From: a virus
Reading direction: 5' to 3' (one strand)
Virus record (IMG/VR): IMGVR_UViG_3300025150_000004
Location: 64,001-128,000 of that record
DNA length: 64,000 nt
The first letter of the stretch is position 1. Each line of letters opens with the position of its first letter. The translations under genes and the position numbers were made by a program. Below are positions 2,254-21,362 of this stretch, in pieces. The notes beneath the pieces are model-generated. The model did no database searches. It saw only the letters and a program-made list of their open reading frames with translations, and was not told the origin of the DNA.

Positions 2254-4215
2254 ATGGGTCTTTCAAGTCTCGCTCTCGACATCGGCCAATCGGTCGCTCC
2301 TGTTCAGGACGCAGTCGCCGACATCATCACCTTCGTCGAGGCCCGTTGGGGTCTGAACCAGAAGCTCTACCCCGTCCAACGGATCATCCTCAAGTGCCAC
2401 TACGGCATCCCGCTGGATGACAACCCGTGGGGGCTCGACCTCAGCCAGCCGGTTCCACTGGGTCATCCCCAGTACGACGAGATCACGACAAAGGAGGGCT
2501 CGGAGAAGGGCTTCTACCGCTGGCGGGTGAAGATCTCCGACTGGCGGCGGGAGAACTGGAGGATCATGTCGGAGGCCGACTACCTCCGAATGCTCTACGA
2601 CGAGGGCCGCTCGAACATCCGAGAAGTGGTTCCTGGCCATGAGCGTCGGGAGATGGTGCTCTCCATCGGCCGCCGGTCCGGCAAAACCCACCTGGCCGCC
2701 TGTGTGGCCGCCTACGAGACCTACAAGCTCATCAAGAAGGGGGACCCGCAGTTCTACTACGGGCTCCCGGTCGGCGAGGTCATCGGCATCATCTCGGTCG
2801 CCACGGACAAAGAGCAGGCCGGGATCCTCTACTCGAAGGTGTCCGGTTACTACAAGGAGTGCCCTTACTTCGGCCCCTACACGGCCAACAACACGATGTC
2901 CTACGCCCGGTTCCAGACCCCCAAGGACATCGAGCGTTACGGCCGGTACATCGAGGACGAGAAGGCCAACGCCACCATTCGGGTGACGTTCCGGCCCTGT
3001 CGAGCCAAGGGTCTTCGAGGCCCTGGCAACATCGTCATCATCCTCGACGAGCTTGCCCACTTCTCGGACGGCGGGCAGTCGTCGGCCAAGGAGGTCTACG
3101 ACGCCGTCACCCCGTCGATTTCTGCCTTCTCCCCCAAGGACCCCGAGGACGCCACGACCCCGACCGGGGACGTGGAGGGGCGGGTTCTCTCGATCTCCAG
3201 CCCCCTGGGCAAGCAGGGCCAGTTCTACACGCTGTTCCAGATCGGCATGAAGGGCGGCAAGGCCGGGGAGAACATGGTGTGCATCCAGGCACCGACCTGG
3301 GAGGTGAACCCGACCGTCCCGTCCAACGAGTTCGAGAAGCACTACCTCAAGGACCCCAACGTTTTCTTCACCGAGTACGGGGGCGAGTTCACCGACCGGA
3401 CCCGGGGCTGGATCGACGATGCGGCCGACCTTCTGGCCTGCGTGGACCCGGCTCATCGCCCGACCGACCGGGGTATGCCTCGCCGTTCCCACTTCGTCGG
3501 CCTCGACTTCGCCCTTGCCGGGGACGGCACGGCCATCGCCATCGGTCACGTCGAGAACGGGGTCATCGTCCTCGATTACCTGGAGGAGATCCGGGCCGGG
3601 GAGGGCAAGTACGCCCACGTCGAGCGCCTGGACTTCGACGAAGTGGCCGATTGGGTCCACGACCTGTCCAGGCGGTTCTACTTCGCCTCGGGTTTGTTCG
3701 ACCAGTGGGCCGGGATCGTGTTCGAGCAGGCGCTCAAGAAGCGGGGCCTCTCCCAGTTGGTGAGCACCCACTTCACGAAGCAGTTGAACAGCCAGTTGTT
3801 CAGCAACTTCAAGGACATGATGTGGGACAAGCGGCTGAAGCTGTACGACTGGCCGAAGCCAAACCCCAGCGCCGGGGACGGGAGCCGGGTCGAGCACTGC
3901 CCGTACATCATGGAGCTTCTGACCCTTCAGGCGGAGTACCAGACCAAGTACATCACGGTCGTCTCCGCCCCCAACGCCCCGGGGAAGCACGACGATATGT
4001 CGGACGCCTTGGTTCGGATGGTCTGGGCGGCCAGTCAGAACATCACCAAGACCCCCTACATCGCTGGGTCTCGGGACAAGCAGGTGCGGGGGCGGACCGT
4101 CCCCAGTCCTGCGGCCGTCCGCAAGGCGTTCATCAAGTCCAAGCGTGTCGGTGGCAGCAGCCCTGATCGGCAGCCCTCCCGCATCAACCGAGGTCGGATT
4201 CGTGGGAGGTTCTGA
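2254..4215 (+). CDS. terL: Terminase large subunit
   Basis: Walker A GRRSGKT, Walker B IILDE, ISSP coupling motif, RNase H-like nuclease motifs GLDFA..D and HDDMSDA. Confidence 0.95.
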   Translation: MGLSSLALDIGQSVAPVQDAVADIITFVEARWGLNQKLYPVQRIILKCHYGIPLDDNPWGLDLSQPVPLGHPQYDEITTKEGSEKGFYRWRVKISDWRRENWRIMSEADYLRMLYDEGRSNIREVVPGHERREMVLSIGRRSGKTHLAACVAAYETYKLIKKGDPQFYYGLPVGEVIGIISVATDKEQAGILYSKVSGYYKECPYFGPYTANNTMSYARFQTPKDIERYGRYIEDEKANATIRVTFRPCRAKGLRGPGNIVIILDELAHFSDGGQSSAKEVYDAVTPSISAFSPKDPEDATTPTGDVEGRVLSISSPLGKQGQFYTLFQIGMKGGKAGENMVCIQAPTWEVNPTVPSNEFEKHYLKDPNVFFTEYGGEFTDRTRGWIDDAADLLACVDPAHRPTDRGMPRRSHFVGLDFALAGDGTAIAIGHVENGVIVLDYLEEIRAGEGKYAHVERLDFDEVADWVHDLSRRFYFASGLFDQWAGIVFEQALKKRGLSQLVSTHFTKQLNSQLFSNFKDMMWDKRLKLYDWPKPNPSAGDGSRVEHCPYIMELLTLQAEYQTKYITVVSAPNAPGKHDDMSDALVRMVWAASQNITKTPYIAGSRDKQVRGRTVPSPAAVRKAFIKSKRVGGSSPDRQPSRINRGRIRGRF

Positions 4216-4472: not shown

Positions 4473-4888
4473 TGGCGCTGAAGGACCGCAGAAGGGCCAA
4501 AGCCGAGCAGACCAATCCGGTTGACCGGGAGGTTCAGGGGCACTTGCAGGTAGCCCTCAAGGAGATCGACCGGGCCATGGCCGTTTACGGACGGATCTCC
4601 CGTAGTGCCCGCCAGGAGGACCAGCAGGTCGCCGGGCGGGCTCGGCAGAACAGGGCCATCCTCGAAGCGGCCAAGGCCCAGTTGTCTCGGGTGACCAACC
4701 TGAAGGCGGCTCTCGAACAAGACATTGACCTGCTCCCCGAGACCGTCAGGGAGCAGTTGTCCCGGGAAGCCAGTCTCAAGCGCCGGGCCGAGGATGATGC
4801 CAAGAGGCGGCAGCGCCAGACCGAGGAGTCCGTCCAGAATCTCCTGGCCTCGCTCGGAAAGGGTGCGTCGGGAGCGGCGGCTGAATGA
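4472..4888 (+). CDS. Hypothetical coiled-coil protein
   Basis: TAATG coupling at 4470-4474; its stop overlaps the portal start. Confidence 0.65.
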   Translation: MALKDRRRAKAEQTNPVDREVQGHLQVALKEIDRAMAVYGRISRSARQEDQQVAGRARQNRAILEAAKAQLSRVTNLKAALEQDIDLLPETVREQLSREASLKRRAEDDAKRRQRQTEESVQNLLASLGKGASGAAAE

Positions 4889-6792
4889 GGCGGAACGACC
4901 CCAAGTACACCGTGAAGGTGGCCACCGTCCCCAAACGGGCTGACGTGACCGTCGGCAAGCCTGGGAAGGTGGTGCGGACCGCCATGCGGGCCAAGGTCGC
5001 TTTCCCGATGGCGGGAGGCACCACGCTGGGCTCGGGTGGGAACTTCTACTCTCCCGAGCTTTCGCCGGACTTCCTCGAACTCCCCCAGAGCATCGACGAG
5101 CAGCGGAACTATTACCGCTTCTTCTACGACCACGATCCCTTCGTCGGTCAGGCCATCGACCTCCACAGTGAGCTTCCCCTCTCGAAGCTCCGCCTCCGCA
5201 AGCCCCGGGCGAAAAACAAGGCGTTGGCGGAAGCCTCCATGCGGTTCTGCGAGAGGTGGGTCAAGAGCATCGGCCTGCTCCAACGGCTCCTGGCAATCGT
5301 CCACGACTTTTACCTCATCGGAGAGGTGTTCGTTTTCGCCGAGGACACCAACCCCGAGATGCCCAGGGAGGTCACCCACCAGCCGCACCGGGAGGTGACC
5401 CCGGAAGGCAAGATCATCGACGAGTGGACCGAGAGGGGGGACGCCCGGGAGCGGATGGTCGAGTGGATGAAGAAGAACTACCAGGGCTGGACGGGCCTGC
5501 GTGTTCTTCCTCCCGAGCAGATCCACATCGAGTCGTTCCCGTTCACGGACAAACGGCTCATCGAACTGATCCCCGATTCCAAGACCAAGAGCCTGGTCGA
5601 GCGGGCACGGCAGGGGGACGAGCGGGCGGCCGAGATCGTCGCCACGTACCCGGCCGACATCATCCGGCACGTCCTCGACGGGACCAACATCCCTTTGAAC
5701 ACCAACCCGATGGCGGGGTCGTTCGTCCACTATCTGGCTCGGAAGAGGGCAGATTACGAGCCCCGGGGCAAGAGCCTTCTTCAGCGGGTCCTCCGGGTGC
5801 TCGTGTACCGGGACAAGCTCCGCCAGGCCCAGACAAGCATTGCCTCACGGCACATGACCCCCATCCGCATCGTGTGGGCGGAGGACATGAACGCCGAGCA
5901 GACCGAGGAACTGCGGGAGCAGGTGGACCTGGCCCTTCAGGACCCGGACTTCTCCATCATCGCCAACTTCCAGGTCAACTGGGAGGAGATCGGCGGGGGT
6001 CAGGGGAACCGGCTCCTCGAACTCACGAGCGAGTACGACCTCACCGACCGGCAGATGTACGCAGGGCTCGGGGTTACCGAGTCCCTCCTCTCCGGCGAGT
6101 CGAGCTACTCCGGCGACCGTATCCACCTGGAGGTCATCAACGTCCGCTACCTCCTGCTGCGGGAACTCCTTCAGGACTTCGTGGACCACCACCTCCTCGA
6201 ACCGATGTGCCGTCGGATGGGATTCGTCGAGATCGACGAGGACGGCTACGAGGTGGTCATCCATCCGAGGCTGTCGTTCACCAGGCTGGCCCTACGGGAC
6301 AATCAGGAGACGTTCGACGCCCTGTTCAACCTCTACCAGAAGGGGTCGCTGGACATCGACACCATCCTCGACCTGCTCAACATCGACCCGGACACGGTGC
6401 GGGAGAAGCTGGAGAGGGACTTCGGGACGTTCAACGACGCCACCTTCAACGAGCTTCTCCGAGCCCTCTACAGCCGGGCTGGGGATGCCATCGTCGAGAA
6501 CTCCGACTTCGTCGAGCAGATGGCCGAGCGGATCCACGTCACCTACAAGAAGCCGAAGCCCGAGGGCGTGGCCCGCTTCGCTTCGGTCCAAGGAGACGAT
6601 GGCGAGGCTCAGGACCCGATGGTACTGCTCAAGGGGGCCGTCAAACAGGCCATCAACGAGGTGTGGGCCACCGACCGCCCGCTCACGGGTTCCGATTGGC
6701 CGAGGGCAGCCACCCGGGAGCCCTCGGTTGGCGACCTGGCCCAGCAGGTGGCCGACTTGCAGGCCCAGATCGCCAAGCTCCAGGGTGGCTAG
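4885..6792 (+). CDS. Portal protein
   Basis: 635 aa downstream of terL; N-terminal YRFFYDHDPFVGQAIDLH helix and PRGKSLLQRVL segment typical of portals. Confidence 0.85.
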   Translation: MRRNDPKYTVKVATVPKRADVTVGKPGKVVRTAMRAKVAFPMAGGTTLGSGGNFYSPELSPDFLELPQSIDEQRNYYRFFYDHDPFVGQAIDLHSELPLSKLRLRKPRAKNKALAEASMRFCERWVKSIGLLQRLLAIVHDFYLIGEVFVFAEDTNPEMPREVTHQPHREVTPEGKIIDEWTERGDARERMVEWMKKNYQGWTGLRVLPPEQIHIESFPFTDKRLIELIPDSKTKSLVERARQGDERAAEIVATYPADIIRHVLDGTNIPLNTNPMAGSFVHYLARKRADYEPRGKSLLQRVLRVLVYRDKLRQAQTSIASRHMTPIRIVWAEDMNAEQTEELREQVDLALQDPDFSIIANFQVNWEEIGGGQGNRLLELTSEYDLTDRQMYAGLGVTESLLSGESSYSGDRIHLEVINVRYLLLRELLQDFVDHHLLEPMCRRMGFVEIDEDGYEVVIHPRLSFTRLALRDNQETFDALFNLYQKGSLDIDTILDLLNIDPDTVREKLERDFGTFNDATFNELLRALYSRAGDAIVENSDFVEQMAERIHVTYKKPKPEGVARFASVQGDDGEAQDPMVLLKGAVKQAINEVWATDRPLTGSDWPRAATREPSVGDLAQQVADLQAQIAKLQGG

Positions 6793-6844
6793 CTCGGTTC
6801 CCTGTCTATTGTCCCCGGTGTGACAGGAACCGGAGAGGCGACCC

Positions 6845-9800
6845 GTGGCGATTCCTGACCCCATCCTCGAAGCACAGGCCCGGCGGCTCAAGGCACGGCA
6901 CCAGGTCAGGCAGGAGTGGGCCAATCTCGACCACATCCGCCTGGCCCGCTCGTACCAGGAGTACGTCGAGGAGAAGAAGCGGGACAACGAGCGCCCGCTT
7001 CCCAAGGCCGAGTGGGAGAAGTTCCAGGGGAAAGGGAAGTCCGAGTCCAAGGGACTGAAGTCCCAACCGAAGTCGGACCGGGCCAAGGCTTTTCTCTCGA
7101 AGGCCAACTCGGTCATGAGCAAGGCGTTCGAGGCGGCCTCCCACAAGGTCAAAACGTTCATCGCCGATCCGGTCGAGCGGAAGAAGATGACCCGGGAGAT
7201 GGGCCGGAGCGTGAAGAAGAATGCTCCCCGGGCGGCCAAGGCCATGTGGAACGGGTTCAAGGGCGAGGCCAAGGCCATCGCCGTGGATGCCCCTTCCATC
7301 CTGTTCAAGATGGCCAAGGAGCGCCGCAAGCCCACCAAGAAGGAGCTTCACACGCTCTACGGGGTCGGCGTCTACGCTGCCGGGACAGCCTTGGCTTTTT
7401 CGGGAGCCACCCCTCTGTTGGCGGCAGCCAAGGCGTTTGGGCACAGCATCACCCTGCACGCCACGTTCAAGGCTATCCACACGGTCGCCGACGAGATCTT
7501 CCTCGGGACCGAGGCCGTCGAGTCCGTGGCACTCGCTGGGGGCCTCGGTGACAAGCTCCCTGTGATGACGAGCGACATCCCGGGTCTGAACCACATTTGG
7601 GATTTCATGGCGGAGACAGCCTCCCAGGTCACCAAGCTCCCCATGTTGGTCGCCGCTGAGGGTAAGGAGCCAGAGGGCGAGGAGGAGAAGTTCCTCTACG
7701 ACCTCATGCAGCGGATCTACGAGGAGGCGGGCAAGGTCTTCGAGAACCTCACCGACGAGGACATCGAGGCCATCATGGCGCACGGGGTTGATGCCCCGTC
7801 CGGCTCGAAGTCGGCGGCCTATTTCAACTCTAAGGAAGATCGGTTTTTGTCCTATTTGAAAAATAGGACATGCGAACCAACTGCTCTCAGCCAGGATGTA
7901 CCGACCCTGTCCATGCCCGAGGTTTTTGTAGGGCACACCGGCCAAAACCGCAGCCTCGAAAACGAGGTTTCAGGGTTGCTCCAGCCGAATCCGTTTGTGC
8001 GGTCGAGGGTTGCACAAACCCCTATCTCGCCAAGGAGTTCTGTAGGCAGCATTACCATGCCTGGTACAGATACGGGGACCCCTCAAAGCGATTTCGCACC
8101 TCCAACGGGCAAGGGAGGATCAACACGTCCGGGTACAGGGTCATTACGGTTGACGGCCAGCAAGTCCTCGAACACCGGCACGTCATGGAACAACAGCTTG
8201 GCCGGGCTCTCCTCCCAGGAGAGACCGTCCACCATCTTAATGGACAGCGGTCCGACAACCGGCCCGAGAACCTCGAACTCTGGTCGAGGCACCAGCCAGC
8301 CGGGCAGCGAGTCGAAGACAAGGTCCGCTGGGCACGAGAGATTCTCGGCCGATATGGCGACCTCTATCCTGAGAATCGCTAAGAAATTCGAGTTGAACGT
8401 TGGGGATCCAGTTCTTTACGGGAAGTACAAGAACAAGAAGGGTGTGATCACCGGGTTCAAGACGGATGAGAAGTCTGGTGACCCCATCGTAGTCATCGAG
8501 CCCGTCCCAAAGGGCCGAAAGCAGACCAAAGAACTGAAGTTGTTCAAAGTCCGTTTTGACGAAGAGCGGGCCGACCCTGCCAAGAGGGCCGCCGAGATGT
8601 CCAACCGGGCCTCCGTGGCTCTGATGCGAATGCTCTCCGACATCGCTCGTCGCCTGGGGGCGGCCCAGCACGTCTACGTCGTGGGTGGGGCCGTGCGGAA
8701 CTTCGCCATCGGCGAGCCCATCAAAGACATCGACGTGGTGATCGACTCCGTGTCCCTCGGCAAGGACTCGGAGTGGTTCGCCAACCAGGTGGCCCGAGCC
8801 ATTCCCGCCAAGACCCAGGTGGTCACCGACCAGTACGGGGTCAGCAAGGTCTTCGTACTTTCACCCTGGGAGCTTGCAGGGCACCAGATGCAGGACCCGG
8901 CCCAGGCGGCCGTGGAGATCGCCAACGCCCGCAAGGAGAGCTACGGCGGGGCCGCCGGGAAGGGGTACAAGCCGGATACGGTGGAGCCTGCCACCATCGA
9001 GGAGGACGTTCGTCGCCGGGAGTTCACGTTCAACTGCATGGCTGGGGATACCCTCATCCCCACCGAGAAAGGCATCCTTCGCATCGACCAGATCGCCTCT
9101 CGGGACGGGGGGGATTATCAGGACATCCGCCTGACGGTAGCAGGGCAAGATGGCCCTTCGACTGCGGTGGGGTGGCAGTACAGCGGGTTCGCCCCCACCC
9201 TGCGGGTGACGACCGAGTGGGGTCATTCCTTCTCCTGCACGCACCATCATCCGGTTCTGGTTCTTCGGGGGCACAGCCATGAGTGGGTGCAGGCGGATCA
9301 GCTTGAGGAAGGTGACCTGCTCTGTGTGCCCGTGCGGCAGGTGACGAGGCGAACTCCTCTTGCCCTCGACCTGCCTGACCCGGTGCAGCCAAAGCACGGG
9401 CGGTTCAAGGAAGTCTGCAAGCCCGAGGTGATGACGCCTGAGTTGGCGTTCCTGATTGGGTGTGTGTTGGCCGAGGGGTCTAATACCCACAAGCGGGTGT
9501 CATTCAGCAACTCCGACCCGGCCCTCATCTCCCGATACGTCGAGTGTTTCCACGCTACGTTCGGAGTCCAGCCCTCACGCAACAAAGTGGTCGAGAAGGG
9601 GTCCGTCCGTGTTTTGCGGGGGGTGGAGTTCGTAGCCAATGCCGACGGCTACGACATCTACGCCGACAGCAAGGCAGTGGTTGGGTGGCTGGAAGACCTC
9701 GGCCTGTACTGCGGGGGGTCCAAGAACGGCAAGTCCGCTTCCCACCACAAGGTCGTCCCGTGGTCCATCCTGCAAGCCGATGAGCGCAGCCAAGGGGCGT

Positions 9801-12800
9801 TCCTCGCAGCATATCTGGAGGGGGACGGCACCATCCGGCCCGACTCGGGGCGCATTACCTTCTGCTCGGCTTCTCCCCATGTCCGACAGCAGTTGCAGGT
9901 GCTTCTGGGTGCCCACGGCATCTTGAGCAAGGTGAAGGACAGGTTCGTCTACATCAACGCCGTGGACTCTGCCATCCTGTGGGAGAAGATCCAGCCGTGG
10001 ATGGTGACCAAGGGGTTCGACTACACTCAGCGGGACAACAAGGCCCGCACCCGCTACGGCATCCCCGCAGATTACATCCGGGGTTTCCTCGCTGGGCGCA
10101 AGCAGGACACCGGCAGCCGGGCCGTTTACGCCACGGACGGAGATGGATTCCGAACCCTCCCCGATGTCCATGAGCCGGTTCGGAAGGTTCAGCGGCTTCT
10201 CCACGATGCCCATGCCCGAGGAGACTTCGACGGGTTCATGGCGAGCCTCAAGGTCATCAGCCCGGACGAGTTCACCAAGCTCCGGCGGTTGTTCGACCTC
10301 GGCTACCAGTACGTCGAGGTCACGTCGGTTGAAAATGCGGGGCAGCAGGACGTGTTCGACATCTCGATGGGCGAGGGGGTCGAGCCTGCTTTTGTGGCGA
10401 ACGGGGTGGTGGTCCACAACACCCTCATGTGGCGGCTGCTTGACCTCGCCAAGGGGCCGGACAAGGCCGAGATCATCGACCTCACCGGCTGCGGGGTCCA
10501 AGACCTGAAGGACCGACGGATGCAGTGCCCGTCGGACCCGGACAAGACTTTCTCGGACGACCCGAGCCGGATGCTCCGGGCGGTCAAGTTCATCATGAAG
10601 TACGGCATGAAGCTGACCCCGGACACCGAGGCAGCTATCCGCCGGAACCTGCCCAAGCTCAAGCGGGCTCCGTTCGAGGCCATCGCCGTCATCCTCGAAG
10701 ACACCCTGCTCAAGGATCCGGGCACGGCGAAGAAGTCCCTGCCCGTGATGAAGAAGCTCGGCTTGCTGGACACTGTGGCCGAGATGATCCGTGAGAACAA
10801 GGCGTTCCAGGCCCGGATGGAGCGGTGGGTCACCAGCAAGCCCATGCTGTTCCTGTTCGACCTGATGGACCTTGGCCTTCCCCTGGGGGCCAACGTCGGG
10901 TTCCTCAGCCGGGACCAGCAAAAGAGGCTCCGTCAGATCGCCCTTGGGATGCCGGAGGGGGAGCCGGAGCGGCTCCTCGAAGTGCTCCGGCAGCCCGGGA
11001 AGGTCATGGACACCCGGGCACTCATTCAGGAGTTCGGGCTCCAGGGGCGAGAGATCGCCCAGATGCAGAAGGACGTGGGGGTGCGGCTCCTGCTCGACAA
11101 CCCCACCCTGGCCAAGAACCCCAGGGCGTTCACCGACGCAGTGCGTCACGAGTTTGCCCGGCGGAAGACGGCTGGTTCCCCGCTGGTCCAGTTGAACATC
11201 GACTTGGGGGAGGGGCAGAAGGTCGAGAAGGTCATCCCGAGTGCCTCACTGCCTTACCTCATCGACAACGTGCAGGTGAGGCGGGTGGCCGGGGCGTGGA
11301 TCCGGCGTCGGGCTACCCGCATCCGAGGTCGTACCCGCTACCTGGCCATGCTCGATGACGCCTGGGAGCCGGTCCGGGTCAAGCTGGCCAATCCCCTCCT
11401 GCCTCAGCAGTTCGTCCAGACGCTCAAGGCCCTGATCGAGAAGGTGAAGTACAACGAGGCTCGGGGTCTGGGGGACACCGCCGAACTCTGGTTGGAGTGG
11501 CGGGAACTCTTCCAGAAGGGTCGTCAGTGGGGCGATTACGTCATCGACCACACAGCCATCCCGTCCGGCAAGGCCAAGGCCGGGGAGATGGGGGTTCGGG
11601 TCTTCCGAACCACCTACGGGCGGGGCAAGGGGCCTCGCCCCAGCATCGCCGCCTGGCTCAAGAAGAACGAGCGGTACTTCCGGGTGCTGGAGGAGGCGAC
11701 CCGCTGGCCCGAGCGGTCGGAGGGTGACGGCATCTTCAAGCACGGGCCGTTCACGGTACACAACACCGTGGGGGCCTCTGACAAGGAGATCCAGACCGCC
11801 AAGGGAATCATCGACCGAGCACTTCGGGCACTTCCAAAGACCGATGTCCCCGAGATGCGCCAGATGGCCTACGGGGACCTGTACCTGGTCGGCGAGATCA
11901 AGCGGAAGCGGTGGGCCGCCTGGTACATGCCCCAGAAGGACGCCATTTACCTTCGGCCGAAGATCAGCGGCATTTCGGCGGACGATTCCGCCCTGCACCT
12001 GGTTCACGAACTCACCCACCGGCTGTGGGCCAAGAGGCTCCCCGCTTTGGTGAAGACAGCGTGGAGCGCCCACCACTTCCAGATGTCCAACAGCCGCAGT
12101 GCCCTTGGAAGGCTCCCCGAAGCCGGGGAAGTCCTGCCCAAGGAGTTGGTGGTCAACCGGAAGCAGGTCAAGGTCGATAGCTACGACGAACTGGGCCAGG
12201 CCGTGCTCGTGGACGCCAAGGGGGGCGCACCCATCGGCAAGGTGAACCGGGTGAAGCTCCGAGAATGGATGGGCAACATCGAGTTCGTCGGCAAGTTCCC
12301 CTCCATCTACGCCTCCTCAGACGCCGAGGAGCACTTCTGCGAGGCCATGGCCCACAAGGGGATGGGGTCCCTCTCGGCAGACAACCTGGCGGCGTTCAAC
12401 CAGATCGTGCTGGGCAAGGGGGGGCCGACCCAGAGCGTGAAGGTGGGGCTCTCCGCCCCTCCGGGGTGGAAGACCGAGAAGAAGCCGAACGGCTGGGTCA
12501 TCTACACGAACCCTACGGGAACGGTGCGGGTGCAGGACACCCGACGGCCTCATCCCGAGCGCTACCAGTTGCTCGAATGGGCGCAGCCCACCATCGTGCA
12601 GGACGGCAAGAAGGTGCCCCGTGGGCGTCCCCAGTGGTTGGAGCACCACGGGTACTCCAGGCTGCCCGAGGCACTGGCGGCCGGAGTGAAGCTCACGCAG
12701 CGGGGTCGGACGGCCTCGCATCACCACATCCGCAACGCCTGCCCAGCCTGCGGGAACGTCTCCACCTGTCGGTGCCGGGCACCCAAGACGGTCGAGACGC

Positions 12801-15494
12801 ACGACCTCTGCTATGACTGTCGGGAGTCAGCGGTCAGGGTCGCCGCTCGCTACAAGAACAAGAAGGAAGTACCCAAGGCCGACGGCAAGGGGACAACCAC
12901 CGTCTACGAGTACAGCGACAAGCAGGTCCAGCACCGAAACCGGGAGAAAGCCAAGCGAGTCGAGAAGCTCCGAGGCTCCATCCACAAGCTCCGAGCACAG
13001 GTCAAGAAGGATCTGGGGGCCGAGGACGAGAAGACCCGAACCGTCGCACTGGTCGTTGGTCTGATGGATCACACCTACGAGCGGGTCGGTAACGACGAGT
13101 CGGCCAAGGACGGCCACTACGGGGTCACCGGCTGGCAGGTCAAGCACATCACGTTCGGCAAGGGCAAGGCCACCATTTCCTACGTCGGCAAGTCCGGCGT
13201 GAAACACGAGAAGGTCGTGGACGACGCCTCGCTCGTCTCCGCCCTCAAGAAGGCTACCAAAGGGAAGGGGTCGAACGACCGGATCTGTGACGGGGAGGAC
13301 TGCAAGGTCTCCGCTTCGGACGTGAACGCCTACCTCAAGCCGTTCGACATCACGGCCAAGGACATCCGTGGGTTCCATGCCAACACCGAGGTTCAGACCC
13401 GGCTCAAGGCCATCCGCTCCAAGGGTGGCAAGCTCCCCGAGGACAAGAAGGAGCGGGAGAAGAAGCTCAAGGCCGAGTTCAAGCAGGCTCTCGAAGAAGC
13501 TGCCAAGGCCGTCGGCCACGAGCCCTCGACACTCAAGTCCCAGTACCTCGTGCCGGGTCTGGAGGACGAGTTCCTCAAGGGTGGTCAGGTGAGCGACAAG
13601 CTCGACAAGCGGGCCATGTCCCTGGAAGAGGTTCGGGCTCTCAAGCAGGAGATCCTCGCCGAGTTGGGGTGGCGGACTGCCACGAAGACCAAGGGGGAGA
13701 AGGAAGAGGAGGAGGTCGAGCGGATGTCCCGTCCTGCTCCCAAGAAGAAGCCGCCCCGGCAGGATCTTCGGCGGAACCGGATGAAGGACGACGACAAGGA
13801 CACCGATGGCCAGGGGGCCGACAAGGACAAGGATCTGTCCCTCAACTACAAGCGGGTAGCCCGCCTCTACCACGCTGCCGTTCTTCAAGACCTCGGGGAC
13901 CTCGATCTGATGCGTCTCGCTGGAGACAAGCAGCACAAACCTGGCGACGTGTGGAAGACCGAAAAGGGCTGGCGAGGGAAGAAGAAGACCCCGAACCAGG
14001 GAGGGCATTTCGAGGGGAAAACTTTCCCCGACAGGGAGCAGGCTGAGGCTTGGGTCGCCGACCCAGACCCGGAAGGCGAAGACGACCAGGCTCCCGACGA
14101 GGAAGGCAGCCGGGCTCCTGACGAGGAGGGCGACCAGGCTCCTGACGGAGATTCTTCGGATCGGCCCGACCCAAAGGCGGAGGCCCGCAAAGAGCGGGAG
14201 CGGCATCGGAATGAGGTTCGTCGCCGGGGCCAGAACTTCGACAAGTCCCTGGACGCTCTGGTGGACACCATCTCCCCGGAGATGGCTGAGGTTCTGATCG
14301 ACCACCTCCCCAGCGGGGACGCCGACAAAGCCGCCATGGCGGAAGCCTTCGACATCCACCTTCACGTTCTCACCGAGGTGTACCTCGACGACGATAAGGG
14401 CTTCTCGAAGAAGGGGCTCGAAGATGCCGCTGAGGTGGTGTCCCTGTTTGGTAGCCCGCCCGACCCCGAGAAGGGGGAGGAGGACGACGCCAAGTTGGAG
14501 GCCAAGCGGGACGCCGCCCGCAAGGAGAAGCTCAAGGAGTTCGGCGAGAAGACCGCCAAGGAGAAGGGGGAGATCCTCGCCCGCCTGCACTTCGCCACGA
14601 AGGTGGTGGCCGATCCTACGGTCGTGGGTGGGCGGTCCTTGGCAGGGAGGACAGACCCCGAGGCCCTACGTGAGCGGGGGTCCGAGGCCGCCCGTCAGTA
14701 CAGCCGGTCGTCACCAGAGATCCGGGCCATGGCCGCCAAGAACGCCATGACCGCCTTGGAGGGGATGGCAGAGGACGACCCGAACCGGGTGGAGTTGGAC
14801 GCCATCGTGGACGGTCTGGCCATCGCCGCAGGCTCCAAGGGGGAGACCTTGGAGGTGGACGGCAAAAAGCTCCGGCCCCGTGCCTCCAAGGGCCACCAGG
14901 TCTTGTACGACCACCTCATCAAGGCTGGGAAGCAGGACATCCTGACCGGCACCATGCACGACCTCTACGGTCCCGAGGGGCGTGCAGCCGTGTCCGAAGC
15001 CCTGGACACGATGGATGACAAGGAGTTGGCCGCCTACGGCAAGACGGGGCACTTCTCGGAGCTTGCGTCCAAGCTCACCGACTCCAAGGTCGGTGAGGAG
15101 CAGAAGGCGTTCATCCGTGGGTTCCTCAAGCGCCAAGGGATCGAGGACAACGGCCCAGTCGTTCATCGAGGCGGCCGAATCCGAGTCGGGAATCGCAGGC
15201 GAGAAGCTCGAAGCTCAGTGGCAGGACCACATCTCCAAGCACCCCGAGGCCAAGGCGTGGGATGACCGCATTCTCTCGGCTGCCCAGAAGGGCGGGGCCG
15301 ATCAGGAGGCCCTGGAGAAGGAGTACCTGGTCTGGCGGTCCCAGATGTACCTCGAATGGCTCCGTCTGATGGGCATCGACCTCCCCAAGGGAAACCCGGA
15401 GCGTGCCCGGCACGAGCACATCACCGACACCAAGGACCCCACACTGCTCGGGGAGAAGCTCGTTCCCCAGGGGGAGGACAAAAAGACAGGCTGA
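6845..15494 (+). CDS. Giant polyvalent protein: N-terminal helical domain, SH3/KOW-like domain, class II CCA-type nucleotidyltransferase (intein-containing), zincin metallopeptidase, Zn finger, DNA topoisomerase IB, acidic C-terminal domain
   Basis: NTase motifs GGAVRN, DID, EDVRRREFTFN, DDPSRMLRAVKF; HELTH plus EEHFCE; TopoIB R-K-R-H-Y set (ERVG, GKSG, DIRG, VGH, SQYL). The ORF is open 6845-15265 and the natural C-terminus continues in another frame to 15494. An internal ATG at 8354 is a possible separate start. Confidence 0.8.
7848..7870 (+). promoter_or_regulatory. RBS-sequestering hairpin upstream of the HNH gene
   Basis: Perfect 10-bp stem TGTCCTATTT-GAA-AAATAGGACA that includes AGGA and the A of the ATG. 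Confidence 0.7.
7870..8382 (+). mobile_element. HNH homing endonuclease nested out of frame inside the giant ORF
   Basis: Two Cx4C..CxxH Zn motifs, GYRVI, EHRHVME..LGR.L...ETVHHLNG.RSDNRPENLELW. Confidence 0.92.
9035..10420 (+). mobile_element. Intein with LAGLIDADG endonuclease (462 aa) in the nucleotidyltransferase
   Basis: Starts CMAGDTLI and ends VVHN before +1 Thr; LIGCVLAEG and FLAAYLEGDG motifs; splits the RREFTFN|TL motif. Confidence 0.95.
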
Positions 15495-15675: not shown

Positions 15676-16314
15676 ATGGCATTGACCAAGAAGGGCGCAC
15701 TGCTCATCACCCGTGACCTGGACCGTGTGGCAACGGTCATCACCCGTGAGGCCAAGGAACTCGGGATTCCCGACAAGGTCGCCACCGGCTTCGCCGAGTG
15801 GTGCGACCGTCTGGCCGACCGCATCGAGGCGACGGCCGGAATCGACCCGAAGGACACGGCCGCCAAGGAGGCGCTCCTCAAGCAGGCGCTCTCCGGCGAA
15901 CCGGCGGCGAAGACCGACTACCCGTTCGACAAGGGCAAGACCTACGACGGCGAGGAGATCGGCAAGGAGCAGTCGGGTCCCCAAGAGGGTGACGCCGACG
16001 AGAGCTACATGCGGGGCGAGTTCACCCAGCAGGAGAACCGGGAGCTTCGGGAGAAGCAGGAGGGTGGCCAGATCTCCGGCGTGAACACCGACCCCCGTGG
16101 CCCCCGTCCCGGCGTCCAGGCGGCCCTCGACAACCTGTCTCAGGTCGTCAAGAGCGCCACCTACACCGACGACGTGGCCGCCAAGGTCGCCGAGGCCCTG
16201 AACCTCGCCGCCGACATCGCCAAGAGCGGTGCCAAGGCCGAGGACGAAGAGGAAGACGAGGGGGAGGCCAAGGAGGCTTCCTCTTTCAACCACGGCTACA
16301 ACCTGAACGCCTAA
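15676..16314 (+). CDS. Hypothetical head-associated protein
   Basis: GGAGG RBS, high-GC3 codons, acidic tail ending KEASS..., located in the head operon. Confidence 0.75.
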   Translation: MALTKKGALLITRDLDRVATVITREAKELGIPDKVATGFAEWCDRLADRIEATAGIDPKDTAAKEALLKQALSGEPAAKTDYPFDKGKTYDGEEIGKEQSGPQEGDADESYMRGEFTQQENRELREKQEGGQISGVNTDPRGPRPGVQAALDNLSQVVKSATYTDDVAAKVAEALNLAADIAKSGAKAEDEEEDEGEAKEASSFNHGYNLNA

Positions 16315-16339: not shown

Positions 16340-16936
16340 GTGAGCGAGAGGGCGGCATACGTCGATTACCAGCAGCGGGCTTCCGAGTTCGCCGTTGGCG
16401 ACGCAGTCTATCCGTTCATGTCGGGGAACCATGACCTGATGGGACGGGTCCAGGCTGTCTGGCCCGCCATCGGCATGGTGCAGGTCGAGTGGCCCCACGG
16501 GTCCGAGCGGGTTCCGGTGGAAGACCTCCAGCGGTATGAGCGAAAGGACCAACTGCCCCCTGCGGTGGGTCTCGACAACGTGCCCGGTGGGGCCTCCTCG
16601 GTCTCGGTTCCGGGCGGGCCGGTGGCTCCCAAGACGGCGACTCTCGCCATCGAGGGCTCCATCCGTCGGGTCGCCGAGGCGTTCGTCAAGAAGGCTCTCT
16701 ACTGGGGGGCCTCCGACCGGAAGTATCGTGCGACCAAGGGTGAACTGGATTCTGGGTCCTTCAACTGCCCCAAGTGTCGGGAGCACGCCCTCCGCAAGGC
16801 CATCTACAAGAGGCAGGAGGGGCGCAGTGAGCCTCTCCTGGGCTGCCCAAGCTGCATGTTCCTGATCAAGCGGTGCGACATCATCGGCTCGGACGAGTGG
16901 CGAGACCTGAACGAGCCCGTGCTGGAGGTGGCCTGA
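16340..16936 (+). CDS. Hypothetical protein with SH3-like N-terminus and C-terminal Zn ribbon
   Basis: CPKC...CPSC; RRVAEAFVKKA motif between the two domains. Confidence 0.75.
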   Translation: MSERAAYVDYQQRASEFAVGDAVYPFMSGNHDLMGRVQAVWPAIGMVQVEWPHGSERVPVEDLQRYERKDQLPPAVGLDNVPGGASSVSVPGGPVAPKTATLAIEGSIRRVAEAFVKKALYWGASDRKYRATKGELDSGSFNCPKCREHALRKAIYKRQEGRSEPLLGCPSCMFLIKRCDIIGSDEWRDLNEPVLEVA

Positions 16937-16937
16937 G

Positions 16938-19900
16938 ATGGCGTTCATGAAGTACGCCAGGGCCGTGGTCGAGCACCCTCACGTCTCCCGACGTGAGTGG
17001 GGCCAGATCCGCACGGCAGGACGTTCCTTCGGGAAGGTCCCGAGTTTCGCCCGGACCCGGGTGAAGCTGGCGAGGGGGTCTGTCCCGACCAACCTGGTGG
17101 ACCAGGCGAGCACCATCTTCGGGGATGTGTTCGACCCGGGTCAGTACCTCCTGACCCATGCCACCATCGTGGCTTCGGTGGATGTGTTCCAGCCCCAGGG
17201 GATCAAGCTCGGTTCCCAGTTGGAGGGCGGGTTCGTCGTCAACCGCAAGTACGGGGACTTCCGGGTCGAGCCGAGGTGCGCCCAGTTCATCAACAACAAC
17301 CGGGACGCCTGGACTCGTGGTGTCCTCCTCAAGGCGTTCGAGACGTTCATCGGCGGGCACAACTTCGTCGAGCACGTCCAGATCGAGTCGATGTCCAAGG
17401 GGCGGATCATCGACGCAGTGGCCCGGGACATCGGGGACTCGGTCTACATCGACATCCTCATCGCCACGGACCGGAAGCACCGGGACCTGGTGACGGCCAT
17501 CGAGAACGGCAAGATGGGCACTTTGTCGATGGGGTGTTTCCTGCCCGGCACGCAGGTCACGATGGCGGACGGTCGCCGCATCGCCATTGAGGATGTGCAG
17601 CCCGGTGACATGGTGCTGACCCACAAGGGCCGTGCCCGTGAGGTGCTGAACAAGCAGATCAAGGGTGGCAAGTGGGATATGCGGACGGTACATGCTGTTG
17701 GGCTGGCATCCCCCATCACGTCCACAGGCAATCATCCCTACTACGTCCTTCGGCCCGCCGAAGTGTGCGCTTGCGGGTGTGGCGAGAGCCTGCCCGCTTA
17801 TGTTTCTTCTGCGAAGAAACCGACGACACGAAGCCTCACACGGCGGTTCAAGGTCGGACACGACAAACGTGTCCTGAACCCCAACAACACCTACTCGCTG
17901 GATGAGTTCAAGCGTCGTAAGGCGCAGATGGACGAGATCCAGAACCCCGAGTTGGTGAAGGTTCGGGCCGATGAACTTCGGGTAGGGGATTTCATCGCCT
18001 TCCCACGGGTGAAGGATGGTGAGCACACCCTTTCCGTCTCTGACGGCAAGGCCCGTCTGCTTGGCTACTTCTTGGCCGAAGGGTGCTTTGCTAAGGAGAA
18101 GGGGCGTCCCGTTCAGGTGACGTTCTGCTTCTCGATGGATGAGAAATCTACGTTCGTTGCCGAGGTGGAGGGCCTGCTCAAGCAAGAGTTCCCAGACAGG
18201 CGGAATGAGCCGTGGGTGCAGGAGCGGGTTGACAGCAACAACTGCATGGTTCACATCCGTGACCCAGAGGTTGCGGCGTGGTTCAAAGAGCACGGCGGCG
18301 AGTACAGCCCTGGTAAGCGCCTGTCGGCTGACGCCATGAACTGGTCGGTGGAGAGCCACAAGCACCTGATCGGGGCGTGGCTAAACGGCGACGGCCACCG
18401 GGCCAAGGCTCATGGTGGGTTCCTTGTGGGCACCACTGTCTCACTGGACCTCGCCAGCCAGATGCACGCCCTGATGGCGAAGTGCGGTTGGTTTGCCCGG
18501 TTCGAGGCCCGCATCGGGTCGAAGTCGGTCACGGTGGCCGAGGCAATCAACGGTGGTGTTGCTGTTCGGGATGAGGCGACGGGGCGGCTTCCGGCGTACC
18601 TGCTGACCATCGGGAACACGCAGTCGGTCGAGTTGCAGGGCTACTGCGCCAAGGCTCCCACCACGGCGAAGTACAGCAACCAGAACAACCGCACTTTTGA
18701 GGATTGGGTGGTCAGCCCGATCACGGCCATCGAGGAGAGTACCTACGAAGGTTGGGTCCACGACATGGAAGTGGAGGAGGACCACACCTATGTTGCTGTA
18801 GGCGCCTGTGTGTCCAACTGCACCGTCGATGGGACCATCTGCACGAAATGCGGGCACTGGGCGGCCGACGAGACCGAGATGTGCTTCCCGACAGGCACCC
18901 GAATCCTGATGGCGGACGGCAAGTACGTTCCCATCGAGGAGGTGGTCGAAGGGGATCTGGTCGTCACCCATACGGGGGCGATCCAGCCTGTCCTGCACAC
19001 GATGGGGCGACACCACGACGGCAACGTCACCGTGCTGAACGTCGAGGGCGTGCCTCAGCCGATTCGGGCAACGACCGGGCACCGTTTCTGGGTCATGCGT
19101 CCCGAAACGCACTGCCAGTGCGGGTGTGGGCAGTCGTTTCGGCGCACCGTCGAACACGAACGGGGGGCGTCACAGGCGTTCCAACGTCGGTTCCTGCCCG
19201 GACACAACAGCAAGGTGATTCCTTTCCCGTCCGGGTTGTTCGCCCCGGCTGACAGCAGGAACACGGGGGCCAATCTGGAGTTCGTCCCGGCGAAGGACAT
19301 TCGCAAGGGCGACTACCTGACGTTCCCCATTCCTCAGCAGGTCACGGCCTCTCCCGAGGCTACTGAGGACAAGGCTCGTCTCATCGGGTTCTTCTTGGCC
19401 GAGGGGAGCTTCATCAAGCGGGATGGGGTACTTGTCGGCGTGAGCTTCGACTTCGGGGCGCATGAGTACGGCTCCCTTGCTGTCGAGGTCGAGGATCTGC
19501 TCAACAAGGTCTGGGGTCGGGACGAGCGCCGCACGGTGGACTTTGACTGGCGGCAGAAGGTGGCGTCGGAGGGTGCCAAGCCAATCCGTCGTCGCAAGAA
19601 CAGTCGTCCTGTCCCCACCGATCTCACCTGTCCGTCGTGTAAGGCACCTTCGGAGTACGCCTACAATGTCCGGTTTAAGAAGGGCCAGGACGACTGCTAC
19701 CAGTGCAAGGTGTGCAACCGTCAGTGGGTCGAGGGGTCGGACCGGGCCGTGAGGGCTTGCCGCAATCTGACGGGGGAGTCCGCCTGTTCGGTTCGGCTGA
19801 TGTGTTCCGAGGCTGCTGAGTGGTTCCACACCTTCTGCGGGGAGTACGCCCACGGCAAGGCGCTGGCTCCCGAGGTCATGTACTGGCCGCAGGAGATCCA

Positions 19901-21362
19901 GAAGCACGTCCTGTTCGGTTGGTTGGGCGGGGACGGGACTCAGTCCCGGTTAGGGATCACGGGCAACACGGCGTCGTTCGATCTGATGAGCCAGATGCAC
20001 GTTCTGGCTGCCCGGTGCGGTTGGTATAGTCGCAAGCAGGTCACGTTCGACCGTCGAGCCGCCATCTTGGACGAGGTGGTCAACGGTTCCGGTCCGGTGA
20101 CGGTGCGAGATAGCAATGGATGGCTGCCTTCGTTCTCGTTGACCCTGCCCGAGCCTGCGGGCTTTGGTGGTGAGGTTAGGTTCACGGACCCCGAAAGCGC
20201 ACGGGTCACGTTGTCGGGTGTCACGGACGGTTTCAAGCGGGTGGGCAACTACCTGTTGTACCGGGTCCGAGAGGCATGGAACGAGTGCTTCTCCGGGCAG
20301 GTCCACAACATCGAGGTCGCCAAAGACAAGAGCTACGTCGTGGAGGGCATGGCCGTCCACAACTGCCCGCACATCAAGTACCAGAAGGGCAACACCTTCT
20401 TCGACGAGCAGGGTCGGCAGCACATCATCGCCGAGCTTTGCGGGCACGAGAGCCTCGACCCAACCGGCGGCGTCACCTTCATCGAGGCGTCGTGGGTTGA
20501 GACACCAGCCTTCACGGGAGCGGTCCTCCGCAACGTGATGGAGGCGACCGAGGAGACGGCCAAGAAGGCCGAGGCAGTTCTCAACTCCCCGCCCCCCCAG
20601 TGGTCCACCGCCGCCATGGCGAAGGCCGCAGGGATGACCAAGACGGGCGTGGGGATCGACGCCCTGGAGCGGGCGGCGCAGCAAGATGGCCGTGTCGTGG
20701 GCCGAGTAGCCCACGGTCCTCTGACTTCTCCCGAAGTCCTCTCTGTCGGGGCCAATCCTTCGATGGAGGCCGACCTGTTCCTGTCGGGATGGGACGAAGA
20801 GGACGACGAGGGGGCCGACGCCCCCGCTGCACCTCCGAAGGAGGAGGGCACCCCTCTCGAAGAGCTTCGCCAGGAGGTCAAGCAGCACCTCCTGAACGAG
20901 GTCAAGCGGGAGATCAAGGACGAGATGAGGAAGAAGGACGTGTCCGACCGCCTCGACTCCACGGCCCCCAACGACACGGTTCAGCATGAAGCTGATGGCC
21001 TCGGGACGCCCTCAAGATCCCGACAGCACGAGGCACGGGCCTACACGGCCGGGATCAACACCTTGGTCCGCACTGCTGCCTCGGACATCGATCTGATGGA
21101 GGCGGTTGCCGCCTTCAACAGGGAGGCAGGGGTTTCGGTCCCTGTCCCGCTTTACCGGGCGGCCCTCAAGGTGGGGCCGTCTACCCAGTTCTCGGGGTCT
21201 TCGACATCCGAGTTCGTCCGGGCCTGCCACGCCGCTCTGGGACGGCAGCCCAACACCACTGAGGTTCGGGTCATGGCCCGTCTCAGCCATCTGCTGTCCC
21301 GTCGGACTTCGGCCCGCACGGGGAACCACAAGGCAGTCGCCACAGAAGGAGCGTTGACATGA
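16938..21362 (+). CDS. Prohead (maturation) protease with two inteins; about 552 aa after splicing
   Basis: NNNRDAW, NFVEH and LSMGC motifs, FIEASWVETPAF, position upstream of scaffold and capsid. Confidence 0.85.
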   Translation: MAFMKYARAVVEHPHVSRREWGQIRTAGRSFGKVPSFARTRVKLARGSVPTNLVDQASTIFGDVFDPGQYLLTHATIVASVDVFQPQGIKLGSQLEGGFVVNRKYGDFRVEPRCAQFINNNRDAWTRGVLLKAFETFIGGHNFVEHVQIESMSKGRIIDAVARDIGDSVYIDILIATDRKHRDLVTAIENGKMGTLSMGCFLPGTQVTMADGRRIAIEDVQPGDMVLTHKGRAREVLNKQIKGGKWDMRTVHAVGLASPITSTGNHPYYVLRPAEVCACGCGESLPAYVSSAKKPTTRSLTRRFKVGHDKRVLNPNNTYSLDEFKRRKAQMDEIQNPELVKVRADELRVGDFIAFPRVKDGEHTLSVSDGKARLLGYFLAEGCFAKEKGRPVQVTFCFSMDEKSTFVAEVEGLLKQEFPDRRNEPWVQERVDSNNCMVHIRDPEVAAWFKEHGGEYSPGKRLSADAMNWSVESHKHLIGAWLNGDGHRAKAHGGFLVGTTVSLDLASQMHALMAKCGWFARFEARIGSKSVTVAEAINGGVAVRDEATGRLPAYLLTIGNTQSVELQGYCAKAPTTAKYSNQNNRTFEDWVVSPITAIEESTYEGWVHDMEVEEDHTYVAVGACVSNCTVDGTICTKCGHWAADETEMCFPTGTRILMADGKYVPIEEVVEGDLVVTHTGAIQPVLHTMGRHHDGNVTVLNVEGVPQPIRATTGHRFWVMRPETHCQCGCGQSFRRTVEHERGASQAFQRRFLPGHNSKVIPFPSGLFAPADSRNTGANLEFVPAKDIRKGDYLTFPIPQQVTASPEATEDKARLIGFFLAEGSFIKRDGVLVGVSFDFGAHEYGSLAVEVEDLLNKVWGRDERRTVDFDWRQKVASEGAKPIRRRKNSRPVPTDLTCPSCKAPSEYAYNVRFKKGQDDCYQCKVCNRQWVEGSDRAVRACRNLTGESACSVRLMCSEAAEWFHTFCGEYAHGKALAPEVMYWPQEIQKHVLFGWLGGDGTQSRLGITGNTASFDLMSQMHVLAARCGWYSRKQVTFDRRAAILDEVVNGSGPVTVRDSNGWLPSFSLTLPEPAGFGGEVRFTDPESARVTLSGVTDGFKRVGNYLLYRVREAWNECFSGQVHNIEVAKDKSYVVEGMAVHNCPHIKYQKGNTFFDEQGRQHIIAELCGHESLDPTGGVTFIEASWVETPAFTGAVLRNVMEATEETAKKAEAVLNSPPPQWSTAAMAKAAGMTKTGVGIDALERAAQQDGRVVGRVAHGPLTSPEVLSVGANPSMEADLFLSGWDEEDDEGADAPAAPPKEEGTPLEELRQEVKQHLLNEVKREIKDEMRKKDVSDRLDSTAPNDTVQHEADGLGTPSRSRQHEARAYTAGINTLVRTAASDIDLMEAVAAFNREAGVSVPVPLYRAALKVGPSTQFSGSSTSEFVRACHAALGRQPNTTEVRVMARLSHLLSRRTSARTGNHKAVATEGALT
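17535..18818 (+). mobile_element. Intein 1 of the protease (428 aa, LAGLIDADG)
   Basis: SMG|CFLPGTQVTMADG ... CVSN|C; LLGYFLAEG and LIGAWLNGDG; penultimate Ser instead of His. Confidence 0.93.
18882..20363 (+). mobile_element. Intein 2 of the protease (494 aa, LAGLIDADG)
   Basis: EM|CFPTGTRILMADG ... AVHN|C; LIGFFLAEG and LFGWLGGDG. Confidence 0.95.

Follow-up and report, generated by a model that had tools for sequence, protein, structure and literature searches.

Gene extent and overall organization

The DNA analysed here (the window) is a 64,000-nucleotide stretch comprising bases 64001-128000 of the 142,891-base IMG/VR virus record IMGVR_UViG_3300025150_000004. The CheckV completeness of the record was 27%, indicating that only part of a huge phage genome, roughly half a megabase in full, is present. 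Directly downstream of the portal gene, the window contains a single gene for a 2,806-residue multi-enzyme protein of roughly 300 kDa (the giant protein), the features of which are listed in Table 1. The original prediction for this locus described a fusion of a nucleotidyltransferase (NTase), a zincin peptidase and a type IB topoisomerase (TopIB) at positions 8354-13620, between portal and protease genes. The three sets of catalytic motifs were confirmed to lie in one + strand frame within these positions, and the location between portal and protease was correct, with two small genes intervening before the protease gene. The boundaries were wrong, since the true N-terminus and 550 C-terminal residues had been cut off from the open frame. 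GC content at third codon positions (GC3) was 0.8-0.9 in the frame of the giant gene over nearly its entire length. The start was assigned to the GTG codon at 6845 because a Shine-Dalgarno sequence, GGAGAGG, is located 6 nt 5' of it and because relatives begin with sequences homologous to its first 27 residues and the following module A. The ATG at 8354 was rejected as the start of the gene in view of its poor Shine-Dalgarno sequence and of the conserved N-terminal sequence encoded upstream of an insertion; this ATG lies inside the 3' end of an overprinted HNH endonuclease gene. Misassembly was ruled against by the presence of the identical protein in a second record (P0002) and of the fusion of NTase with TopIB in dozens of independent assemblies.

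Relatives were identified with aa 1196-2300 as the query in a search covering proteins of 1,543-4,911 aa at E<=1e-3. The search returned 161 giant relatives, many on contigs of 100-530 kb, of which the 120 listed were used for the comparisons reported below. More than 100 of these relatives are 1.5-4.5 kaa in length.

Table 1. Features of the giant gene and of neighbouring head genes (positions in the window).
Feature	Position	Strand	Evidence or location
Whole giant gene	6845..15265	+	2,806 codons, GTG start, GC3 frame plot
Conserved N-terminal peptide, aa 1-27, DPILEAQARRLKAR...	6845..6925	+	N-termini of relatives
Module A, aa 28-328, with hydrophobic stretch	6926..7828	+	7 relatives, same N-terminal position
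Insertion, 570 nt; in the host frame an S/T/G/P-rich linker, aa 329-518	7829..8398	+	Relatives lack the insertion
HNH homing endonuclease gene, 170 aa	7870..8382	+ (another frame)	HNH_3 1.4e-10; PHROG 20891 6e-26
SH3-like module, small, beta-rich, GDPVLYGKYKNKKG...	8399..8614	+	69/119 relatives, varied positions
NTase N-extein, head domain (GGAVRN, DID, RRREFTFN)	8642..9034	+	Pfam PolyA_pol
Intein with LAGLIDADG endonuclease, 462 aa, aa 731-1192	9035-10420	+	Pfam Intein_splicing, LAGLIDADG_3
NTase C-extein, neck and body, contains DDPSRMLRAVKF	10421..11344	+	PHROG 2244 tRNA NTase 1e-21
Four-helix bundle and zincin domain	11372..12424	+	Alignment, AlphaFold2 (AF2) model, fold comparison
Unassigned segment ending in a Cys4 zinc-ribbon-like motif	12452..12844	+	Read from the sequence
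RVAARY border motif	12836..12853	+	Directly 5' of the topoisomerase module
Type IB topoisomerase module	12851..13624	+	Pfam Topoisom_I; Tyr codon 13544-13546
Highly charged linker, predicted disordered	13625..14158	+	AF2 predicted local distance difference test (pLDDT) below 50; composition
All-alpha C-terminal domain, 330 residues	14159..15154	+	102/119 relatives; AF2 pLDDT above 90
Large terminase (TerL)	2254..4215		Upstream of portal; PHROG 2, 2.7e-28
Portal	4885..6792		Directly upstream of giant gene; PHROG 16240, 2.2e-27
Two small genes	15676..16314 and 16340..16936		Between giant gene and protease gene
Protease gene, 1,474 codons, two Hint/intein insertions	16938-21362		After the two small genes

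The nucleotidyltransferase and its intein

The NTase motifs were located as GGAVRN (aa 614-619, nt 8684-8701), DID (aa 629-631), RRREFTFN (aa 723-730) and DDPSRMLRAVKF (aa 1238-1249), with D629 and D631 of the D-I-D sequence being the DxD metal carboxylates that follow GGAVRN. The Pfam model PolyA_pol (PF01743) covered aa 610-735 with a score of 42.2 bits against a cut-off of 23, and the PHROG tRNA nucleotidyltransferase match spanned aa 1202-1317; the match to PolyA_pol_RNAbd was weak (16.4 bits vs 22). Solved structures were searched with a natural intein-less allele (P0003) as the query, the closest being the A-adding enzyme of A. aeolicus (4wby, 2e-16), the Bst CCA enzyme (1miv, 4e-14) and E. 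coli poly(A) polymerase (1e-13). The designation "CCA-type" of the original prediction was not established, since the NCBIfam models for PcnB (84.1 bits vs 305.65) and for CCA enzymes (TIGR02692 and NF009814, 78.9 vs 438.8 and 73.9 vs 290) score alike and all far below their equivalog cut-offs. The domain was for this reason filed as CCA/poly(A)-type rather than as a CCA-adding enzyme; judged by its sequence it is a divergent class II NTase.

The original prediction had also drawn attention to GGAVRN and RRE in place of the usual GGxVRD and RRD, with a possible change in nucleotide specificity. Both forms are present, but they are not special to this copy: GGxVRN was found in 61 of 67 and RRE in 62 of 64 family NTases. 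The motif forms of the giant protein (GGAVRN, RRE and DDPSR, with the templating Asp and Arg of motif D retained) are signatures of the whole clade, which argues for a clade mark and not for a copy-specific shift.

The two parts of the NTase are separated by an intein with splice residues C731 (Cys1), H1191-N1192 and the +1 nucleophile T1193. The splice junction was fixed by the sequence of the intein-less P0003 (contig L002, 80% identical), which reads RREFTFN-TLMWRL across the site, within the uninterrupted RREFTFNTLMWRL. The same intein was present in 6 relatives with 77-93% identity. As deduced from these sequences, the NTase is whole only after protein splicing of the LAGLIDADG intein.

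The zincin metallopeptidase

The HELTH motif was located at aa 1721-1725 (nt 12005-12019) and EEHFCE at aa 1828-1833 (nt 12326-12343). Residues H1721, E1722, H1725 and E1829 were invariant in 24 of 24 family sequences, down to 25% identity. No match to aa 1500-1870 was obtained in Pfam, PHROG, NCBIfam or PDB-sequence searches. The AF2 model of the region (pLDDT 88.7, predicted template modelling score 0.79) shows a four-helix bundle preceding the catalytic domain, in which H1721, E1722 and H1725 are located in model helix 213-231 and E1829 in a later helix, 328-340, the arrangement found in gluzincins. In an exhaustive VIA-align comparison the catalytic domain of anthrax lethal factor ranked at the top (Z 9.8, 188 residues aligned, root-mean-square deviation 4.4), followed by PPEP-3 (Z 9.2) and PPEP-2 (Z 9.1), with deuterolysin, AsaP1, lugdulysin and Wss1 in lower rows. 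The Foldseek rows were almost all zincin-type HExxH proteins with weak scores (E >= 7e-3). By motif and by a moderate fold match the modelled domain is a zincin that belongs to no named MEROPS or Pfam family. The metallopeptidase domain of the original prediction was thereby retained, but self-processing of the polyprotein, a function proposed for the zincins of polyvalent proteins (Iyer et al. 2017, PMC5512222), is at least as well supported as the proteolysis of host factors proposed for it.

The topoisomerase, its border motif and the C-terminal part

The TopIB module matched PF01028 (Topoisom_I) with 96.3 bits against a cut-off of 23.7 (E 2.3e-27) and with 101.7 bits in the genome search. 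The closest solved enzymes were those of D. radiodurans (2f4q, 4e-11) and variola (2h7f, 2e-7), and the pentad R2080, K2116, R2175, H2225 and Y2234 aligns to the catalytic residues of both. This pentad was invariant in 120 of 120 relatives. Alignments start at residue 62-70 of the solved enzymes, such that only the last part of their N-terminal DNA-binding beta domain is matched. As judged from these alignments, the catalytic motifs were shown to be intact and under purifying selection.

The segment preceding the module gave weak family matches and contains the Cys4 motif as CPACG (12740-12754) and CYDC (12809-12820). At its end the border motif was found, which in the form [RK]VAAR[YWH] occurs 162 times in the family (P0003-P0121) vs 9 expected by shuffling, an enrichment of about 18-fold. 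The occurrences are mostly at module borders, and one was located directly before every TopIB module inspected, suggesting RVAAR[YW] as a candidate cleavage or docking signal. A role as a general prohead-protease site was unsupported, the motif being absent from the portal, scaffold, capsid and other open reading frames (ORFs) of the head module. Elsewhere in the record, [RK]VAAR[YWH] is carried by only two small ORFs, at about 9684 and about 58951 (G000:C1), outside the window.

The all-alpha domain that follows the charged linker gave no meaningful fold match in PDB by Foldseek (best E 0.87), in BFVD or in the ESM atlas (TM <= 0.27), and the atlas feature search for it was empty. Stand-alone homologues of this domain were not found among proteins of 253-807 aa.

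N-terminal modules and the HNH insertion

The first 27 residues are common to the N-termini of at least eight relatives, the identity over this opening stretch being 74-80% in P0003, P0004, P0010, P0012 and P0013. At the DNA level, homology to contig L002 covers the portal gene, continues into the giant gene for 25 codons (to 6920) and resumes at 8414; L002 is without module A. This module was found with 41-65% identity in 7 relatives, where it runs directly into the SH3-like module and the NTase. No known family was found for module A in Pfam, PHROG or NCBIfam, atlas leads were all below 0.9, and no close relatives of the N-terminal 335 aa were found in IMG/VR. No Pfam or PDB sequence match was found for the SH3-like module.

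The insertion is located between SAAYFN (aa 323-328) and VGDPVLYGKY (aa 519-), at a point where YFN in the relatives runs straight into PGDEIVYGKYKNK. Within it the GC3 signal changes frame. The host frame is without a stop codon, and the length of 570 nt is a multiple of 3. Synonymous resampling of the HNH gene left the host frame open in 9% of cases. A second case was found in L007 (4299-4964), where an HNH gene 46% identical and in the equal relative frame, likewise just upstream of an SH3-like FELN[IV]GDPVLxGKY module, also leaves the host frame open; only 1.8% of its resamplings did so. The open host frame at both insertions suggests selection for translational read-through, and these frequencies argue that the giant gene is most likely translated from 6845 across the insertion. 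A group I or group II intron around the HNH gene is unlikely, since no intron RNA family was found either at Rfam gathering scores or at E<=1 on 7600-8600 and since the flanks of the HNH ORF are only 41 and 16 nt. At 7841-7872 a perfect hairpin of 9-10 bp, GTCCTATTT...AAATAGGAC, covers the ribosome-binding site of the HNH gene and abuts its ATG; in this it is reminiscent of how some homing endonuclease genes of phages are kept translationally silent.

A family with a constant topoisomerase and an exchangeable payload

PF01028 was present in all 120 listed relatives and PF01743 in about 66. Further domains of the relatives were RNA_ligase, 2_5_RNA_ligase2/LigT, HAD_SAK_1, tRNA_lig_CPD, cREC, NUDIX, PAP2 and GNAT, as well as domains defined on polyvalent proteins, namely ART-PolyVal and InPase (in a re-scanned subset) and PF18796 (precomputed), and DUF5661, likewise a link to polyvalent proteins. 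RNA_ligase, 2_5_RNA_ligase2, HAD_SAK_1 and tRNA_lig_CPD make up a strong RNA-repair theme across the family. With only the TopIB module as the query, an exhaustive phmmer search returned 3,018 matches at E<=1e-3 and 586 at E<=1e-30 (representatives at 50% identity), the 150 listed being 326-3,381 aa in length. As far as domain composition reveals, this is a large metagenome-only family in which TopIB is constant and is usually followed by a charged linker and the all-alpha C-terminal domain, and in which the N-terminal part is a swappable enzyme payload, mostly for RNA-end repair.

The order TerL, portal, giant protein, two small genes, head maturation protease of about 500 aa, EF-hand protein and capsid was conserved in L002, L005, L006, LR745208.1 and the contigs of P0005 and P0089, that is, in every readable contig. 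The portals are 64-89% identical among relatives, while the payload of the giant protein differs. In LR745208.1, a 485-kb phage, a TopIB protein of only 508 aa occupies the position of the giant gene. In L006, a 331-kb relative, a free-standing NTase of 254 aa and three more small genes were located between the portal and the giant protein (6692-9988).

The 143-kb fragment encodes 19 tRNA genes (ARAGORN), nearly all without an encoded 3' CCA. Seventeen of these form one cluster, and the loci are G000:C1:3191-7965, 51173-51262 and 54004-54095, outside the window. The giant gene was the sole PolyA_pol gene of the fragment, and no other class II NTase was found there.

Comparison with known systems

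The polyvalent character assumed in the original prediction was supported by the several unrelated catalytic domains and by the ART-PolyVal and InPase domains of relatives. As in polyvalent proteins (PMC5512222), many unrelated catalytic domains are joined in one giant polypeptide encoded in a virion module, the zincin has a fold related to that of anthrax lethal factor, and ART-PolyVal, InPase and 2H domains are shared through the relatives. The giant protein differs in that it has no MuF, portal or ArdC-N domain and is linked to the portal through gene adjacency only, that the family is confined to huge-phage contigs, and that the constant hub is TopIB, which is missing from the domain list in PMC5512222. 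Its family payload is dominated by RNA repair, whereas for polyvalent proteins no case of a 2H domain accompanied by an RNA ligase was reported (PMC5512222).

With the pox and bacterial enzymes (vaccinia/variola, 2f4q) the topoisomerase module shares a compact catalytic domain and the R-K-R-H-Y pentad; it differs in being embedded in 2,806 aa at about 25-30% identity, in leaving most of the pox N-terminal DNA-recognition domain unaligned, and in being preceded by a Cys4 ribbon. Jumbo phages PaBG, Lu11 and phiRSL1 also encode a TopIB-type enzyme, TopoI (PMC7824862). The PaBG enzyme, with 32% identity over 136 aa to the giant protein, is a stand-alone protein of 562 aa, the gene for which is a few genes from the major capsid gene and not next to the portal gene. 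The NTase resembles class II tRNA NTases and phage CCA enzymes (PHROG 2244) in having head motifs A-D in order, with solved relatives at 1e-16 to 1e-10. It deviates from them, as does its whole clade, in GGxVRN, RRE and DDxxR for GGxVRD, RRD and EDxxR; it is moreover part of a giant fusion and interrupted by an intein.

T4 Alt and the internal proteins of T4, and the virion RNA polymerase of N4, are head-packaged and injected enzymes. The proposed logic shared with them is that of head-loaded enzymes acting before phage gene expression; the giant protein has no sequence relation to T4 Alt or N4 virion RNA polymerase, and no capsid-targeting signal was identified in it. A survey of jumbo phages reported stand-alone phage TopoI genes only (PMC7824862), and the paper on huge phages mentions CCA-adding enzymes but not a topoisomerase (PMC7162821). 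A description of a post-portal NTase-zincin-TopIB architecture was not found in a targeted, limited literature search. The best reading of these comparisons is that the giant protein would represent a topoisomerase-anchored, RNA-repair-rich variant of the polyvalent cargo proteins of phages, belonging to huge phages.

Proposed function and alternatives

We consider it somewhat better than an even chance that the giant protein is a polyvalent multi-enzyme cargo of the head which is packaged, processed and injected, serving in tRNA repair and genome relaxation. The giant protein would be made late together with the head proteins and loaded into the prohead. Its zincin, or else the prohead protease, may cut it into modules, the border motif being the candidate site. 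The modules would enter the cell together with the DNA. In the host the NTase would restore or complete tRNA 3' ends, and TopIB, independent of ATP and Mg, would relax the very long incoming genome for early transcription, as the virion TopIB of poxviruses does. Vaccinia packages TopIB in the virion for early transcription, and TopIB activity requires neither ATP nor Mg; it is on account of these two properties that TopIB could plausibly act on the incoming genome. The gene's constant place among the head genes, the variable payload beside a slowly changing portal, and the polyvalent-protein domains of relatives argue for a slot for head cargo. Polyvalent proteins and head-packaged enzymes encoded beside portal or terminase genes provide the precedent (PMC5512222, PMC9503650), and a payload for RNA end-healing and sealing fits a defence against host systems that cleave tRNA (PMC7824862). 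We infer packaging and injection from gene position only, and likewise infer the processing, the tRNA substrate and the timing of action.

Several results weigh against head cargo. Neither MuF nor any other virion domain was found in the giant protein or the 143-kb fragment, and MuF was also absent from the Pfam lists of the 120 relatives. No cultured relative was found in the phage collection, and the PcnB and CCA models score the NTase alike, far below their cut-offs. The separate NTase gene of L006 and the short TopIB protein of LR745208.1 indicate that the fusion is not essential. To pass through a tail, so large a polypeptide (about 300 kDa) would need cleavage or unfolding. TopoI of PaBG was not among the 14 Coomassie-visible virion proteins (PMC7412058), a result uninformative for a low-copy protein. 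Finally, with 19 mostly CCA-less tRNA genes in the fragment, the NTase could simply mature phage tRNAs in the cytoplasm.

The last point leads to an explanation that we hold to be quite possible, at well below an even chance, in which the giant protein is a non-packaged multi-enzyme made with the late genes and acting in the infected cell. The NTase would add CCA to phage tRNAs, the zincin would free the enzymes from the polyprotein, and TopIB would take the torsional stress off a genome of roughly 0.5 Mb as it is replicated, transcribed late or processed from concatemers. Intracellular maturation of phage tRNAs is a serious rival because the fragment combines mostly CCA-less tRNAs with no class II NTase other than that of the giant gene. 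It is also consistent with the absence of MuF or virion domains, with modules being separate genes in L006, and with the CCA-adding enzymes that huge phages carry in their translation toolkit (PMC7162821, PMC7824862). On the other hand, the strict placement from portal to prohead protease with a varying payload is a pattern of head cargo and not of replication genes, and relatives bear domains typical of injected polyvalent proteins. Moreover, CCA-less tRNAs are normally served by host CCA enzymes. The proximity to the portal could instead reflect an accessory of packaging or ejection, in which TopIB and the C-terminal domain form an ATP-independent swivel at the portal, so that twist is let go as half a megabase of DNA moves into or out of the head; the remaining enzymes would travel as passengers with this abundant component of the head. 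No module but TopIB is common to all family members, and its pentad is invariant; the gene is always next to that for the portal, and LR745208.1 has the TopIB-only form at the same position. We nevertheless regard this as fairly unlikely, since to our knowledge no phage packaging motor requires a topoisomerase, and the C-terminal domain has no recognisable portal-binding fold. Unlikely too is a version of head cargo in which TopIB is the delivery device, clamping the packaged genome near the portal or joining it covalently through its tyrosine, and towing the variable RNA-repair and other enzymes into the host. Such a device would explain why TopIB is the one universal module; the system would be specific to huge phages, and RVAAR[YW] would mark where modules are cut loose.

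It is very unlikely that the NTase is offensive. As a poly(A) polymerase or a tRNA-tailing enzyme it would tag host RNAs for degradation or block the tRNAs of the host, and a protease attacking host proteins would be delivered along with it. Of the NCBIfam models PcnB, a poly(A) polymerase, gave the top score (84 bits), the PDB matches include E. coli PAP I, and the family-wide D->N and D->E replacements in motifs A and B would permit an altered activity; yet the models for CCA enzymes score almost equally, and the RNA ligase, 2H, HAD_SAK_1 and tRNA_lig_CPD domains co-occurring in relatives are of the healing and sealing kind that fits repair. Hardly credible, finally, is an artefact or dead gene, either through chimeric assembly or through an HNH insertion that inactivated the gene, such that only a fragment from 8354 onward, or nothing, is made. 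An HNH gene does lie inside the frame, 190 host-frame codons of which are an off-frame read of it. The architecture, however, recurs in >100 independent assemblies in addition to the identical copy in the second record, the stop-free insertion preserves the frame, the host frame is open here and in L007 despite the small fractions of resamplings that leave it so, and both GC3 and the catalytic residues are intact downstream.

As judged from the 586 clusters at 50% identity obtained with the TopIB module alone, the locus defines a large family resembling a modular cargo slot, in which TopIB is kept throughout and the exchanged modules are for RNA repair, ADP-ribosylation, pyrophosphatase activity and proteolysis. 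Nearly all knowledge of huge phages comes from metagenomes. If the giant protein is packaged, the concept of polyvalent proteins would gain a new anchor domain, bacterial viruses would offer a parallel to the virion topoisomerase of poxviruses, and tRNA repair enzymes might arrive ready-made to counter defences that target tRNA. The modules, natural and compact, are predicted to be catalytically intact. The gene also appears to illustrate how mobile endonucleases colonise an important gene without breaking its frame, here as one intein and one HNH gene with in-frame read-through.

Neighbouring genes

The head maturation protease was assigned through the intein-free L002 homologue (540 aa) of the 1,474-codon gene, which matched PHROG 18299 at 5e-11. 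With the two insertions of this gene and that of the NTase, at least three inteins are located within about 15 kb of the head module. The protease gene is followed by a gene for a 554-aa EF-hand protein (21359-23023; Pfam EF-hand_1, 6.5e-9), and 3' of it by a gene for 290 aa with a weak capsid-family match, seen in its homologue. The EF-hand protein occupies the position of a scaffold gene, and the EF-hand signal was found again in relatives L005 and the P0005 contig.

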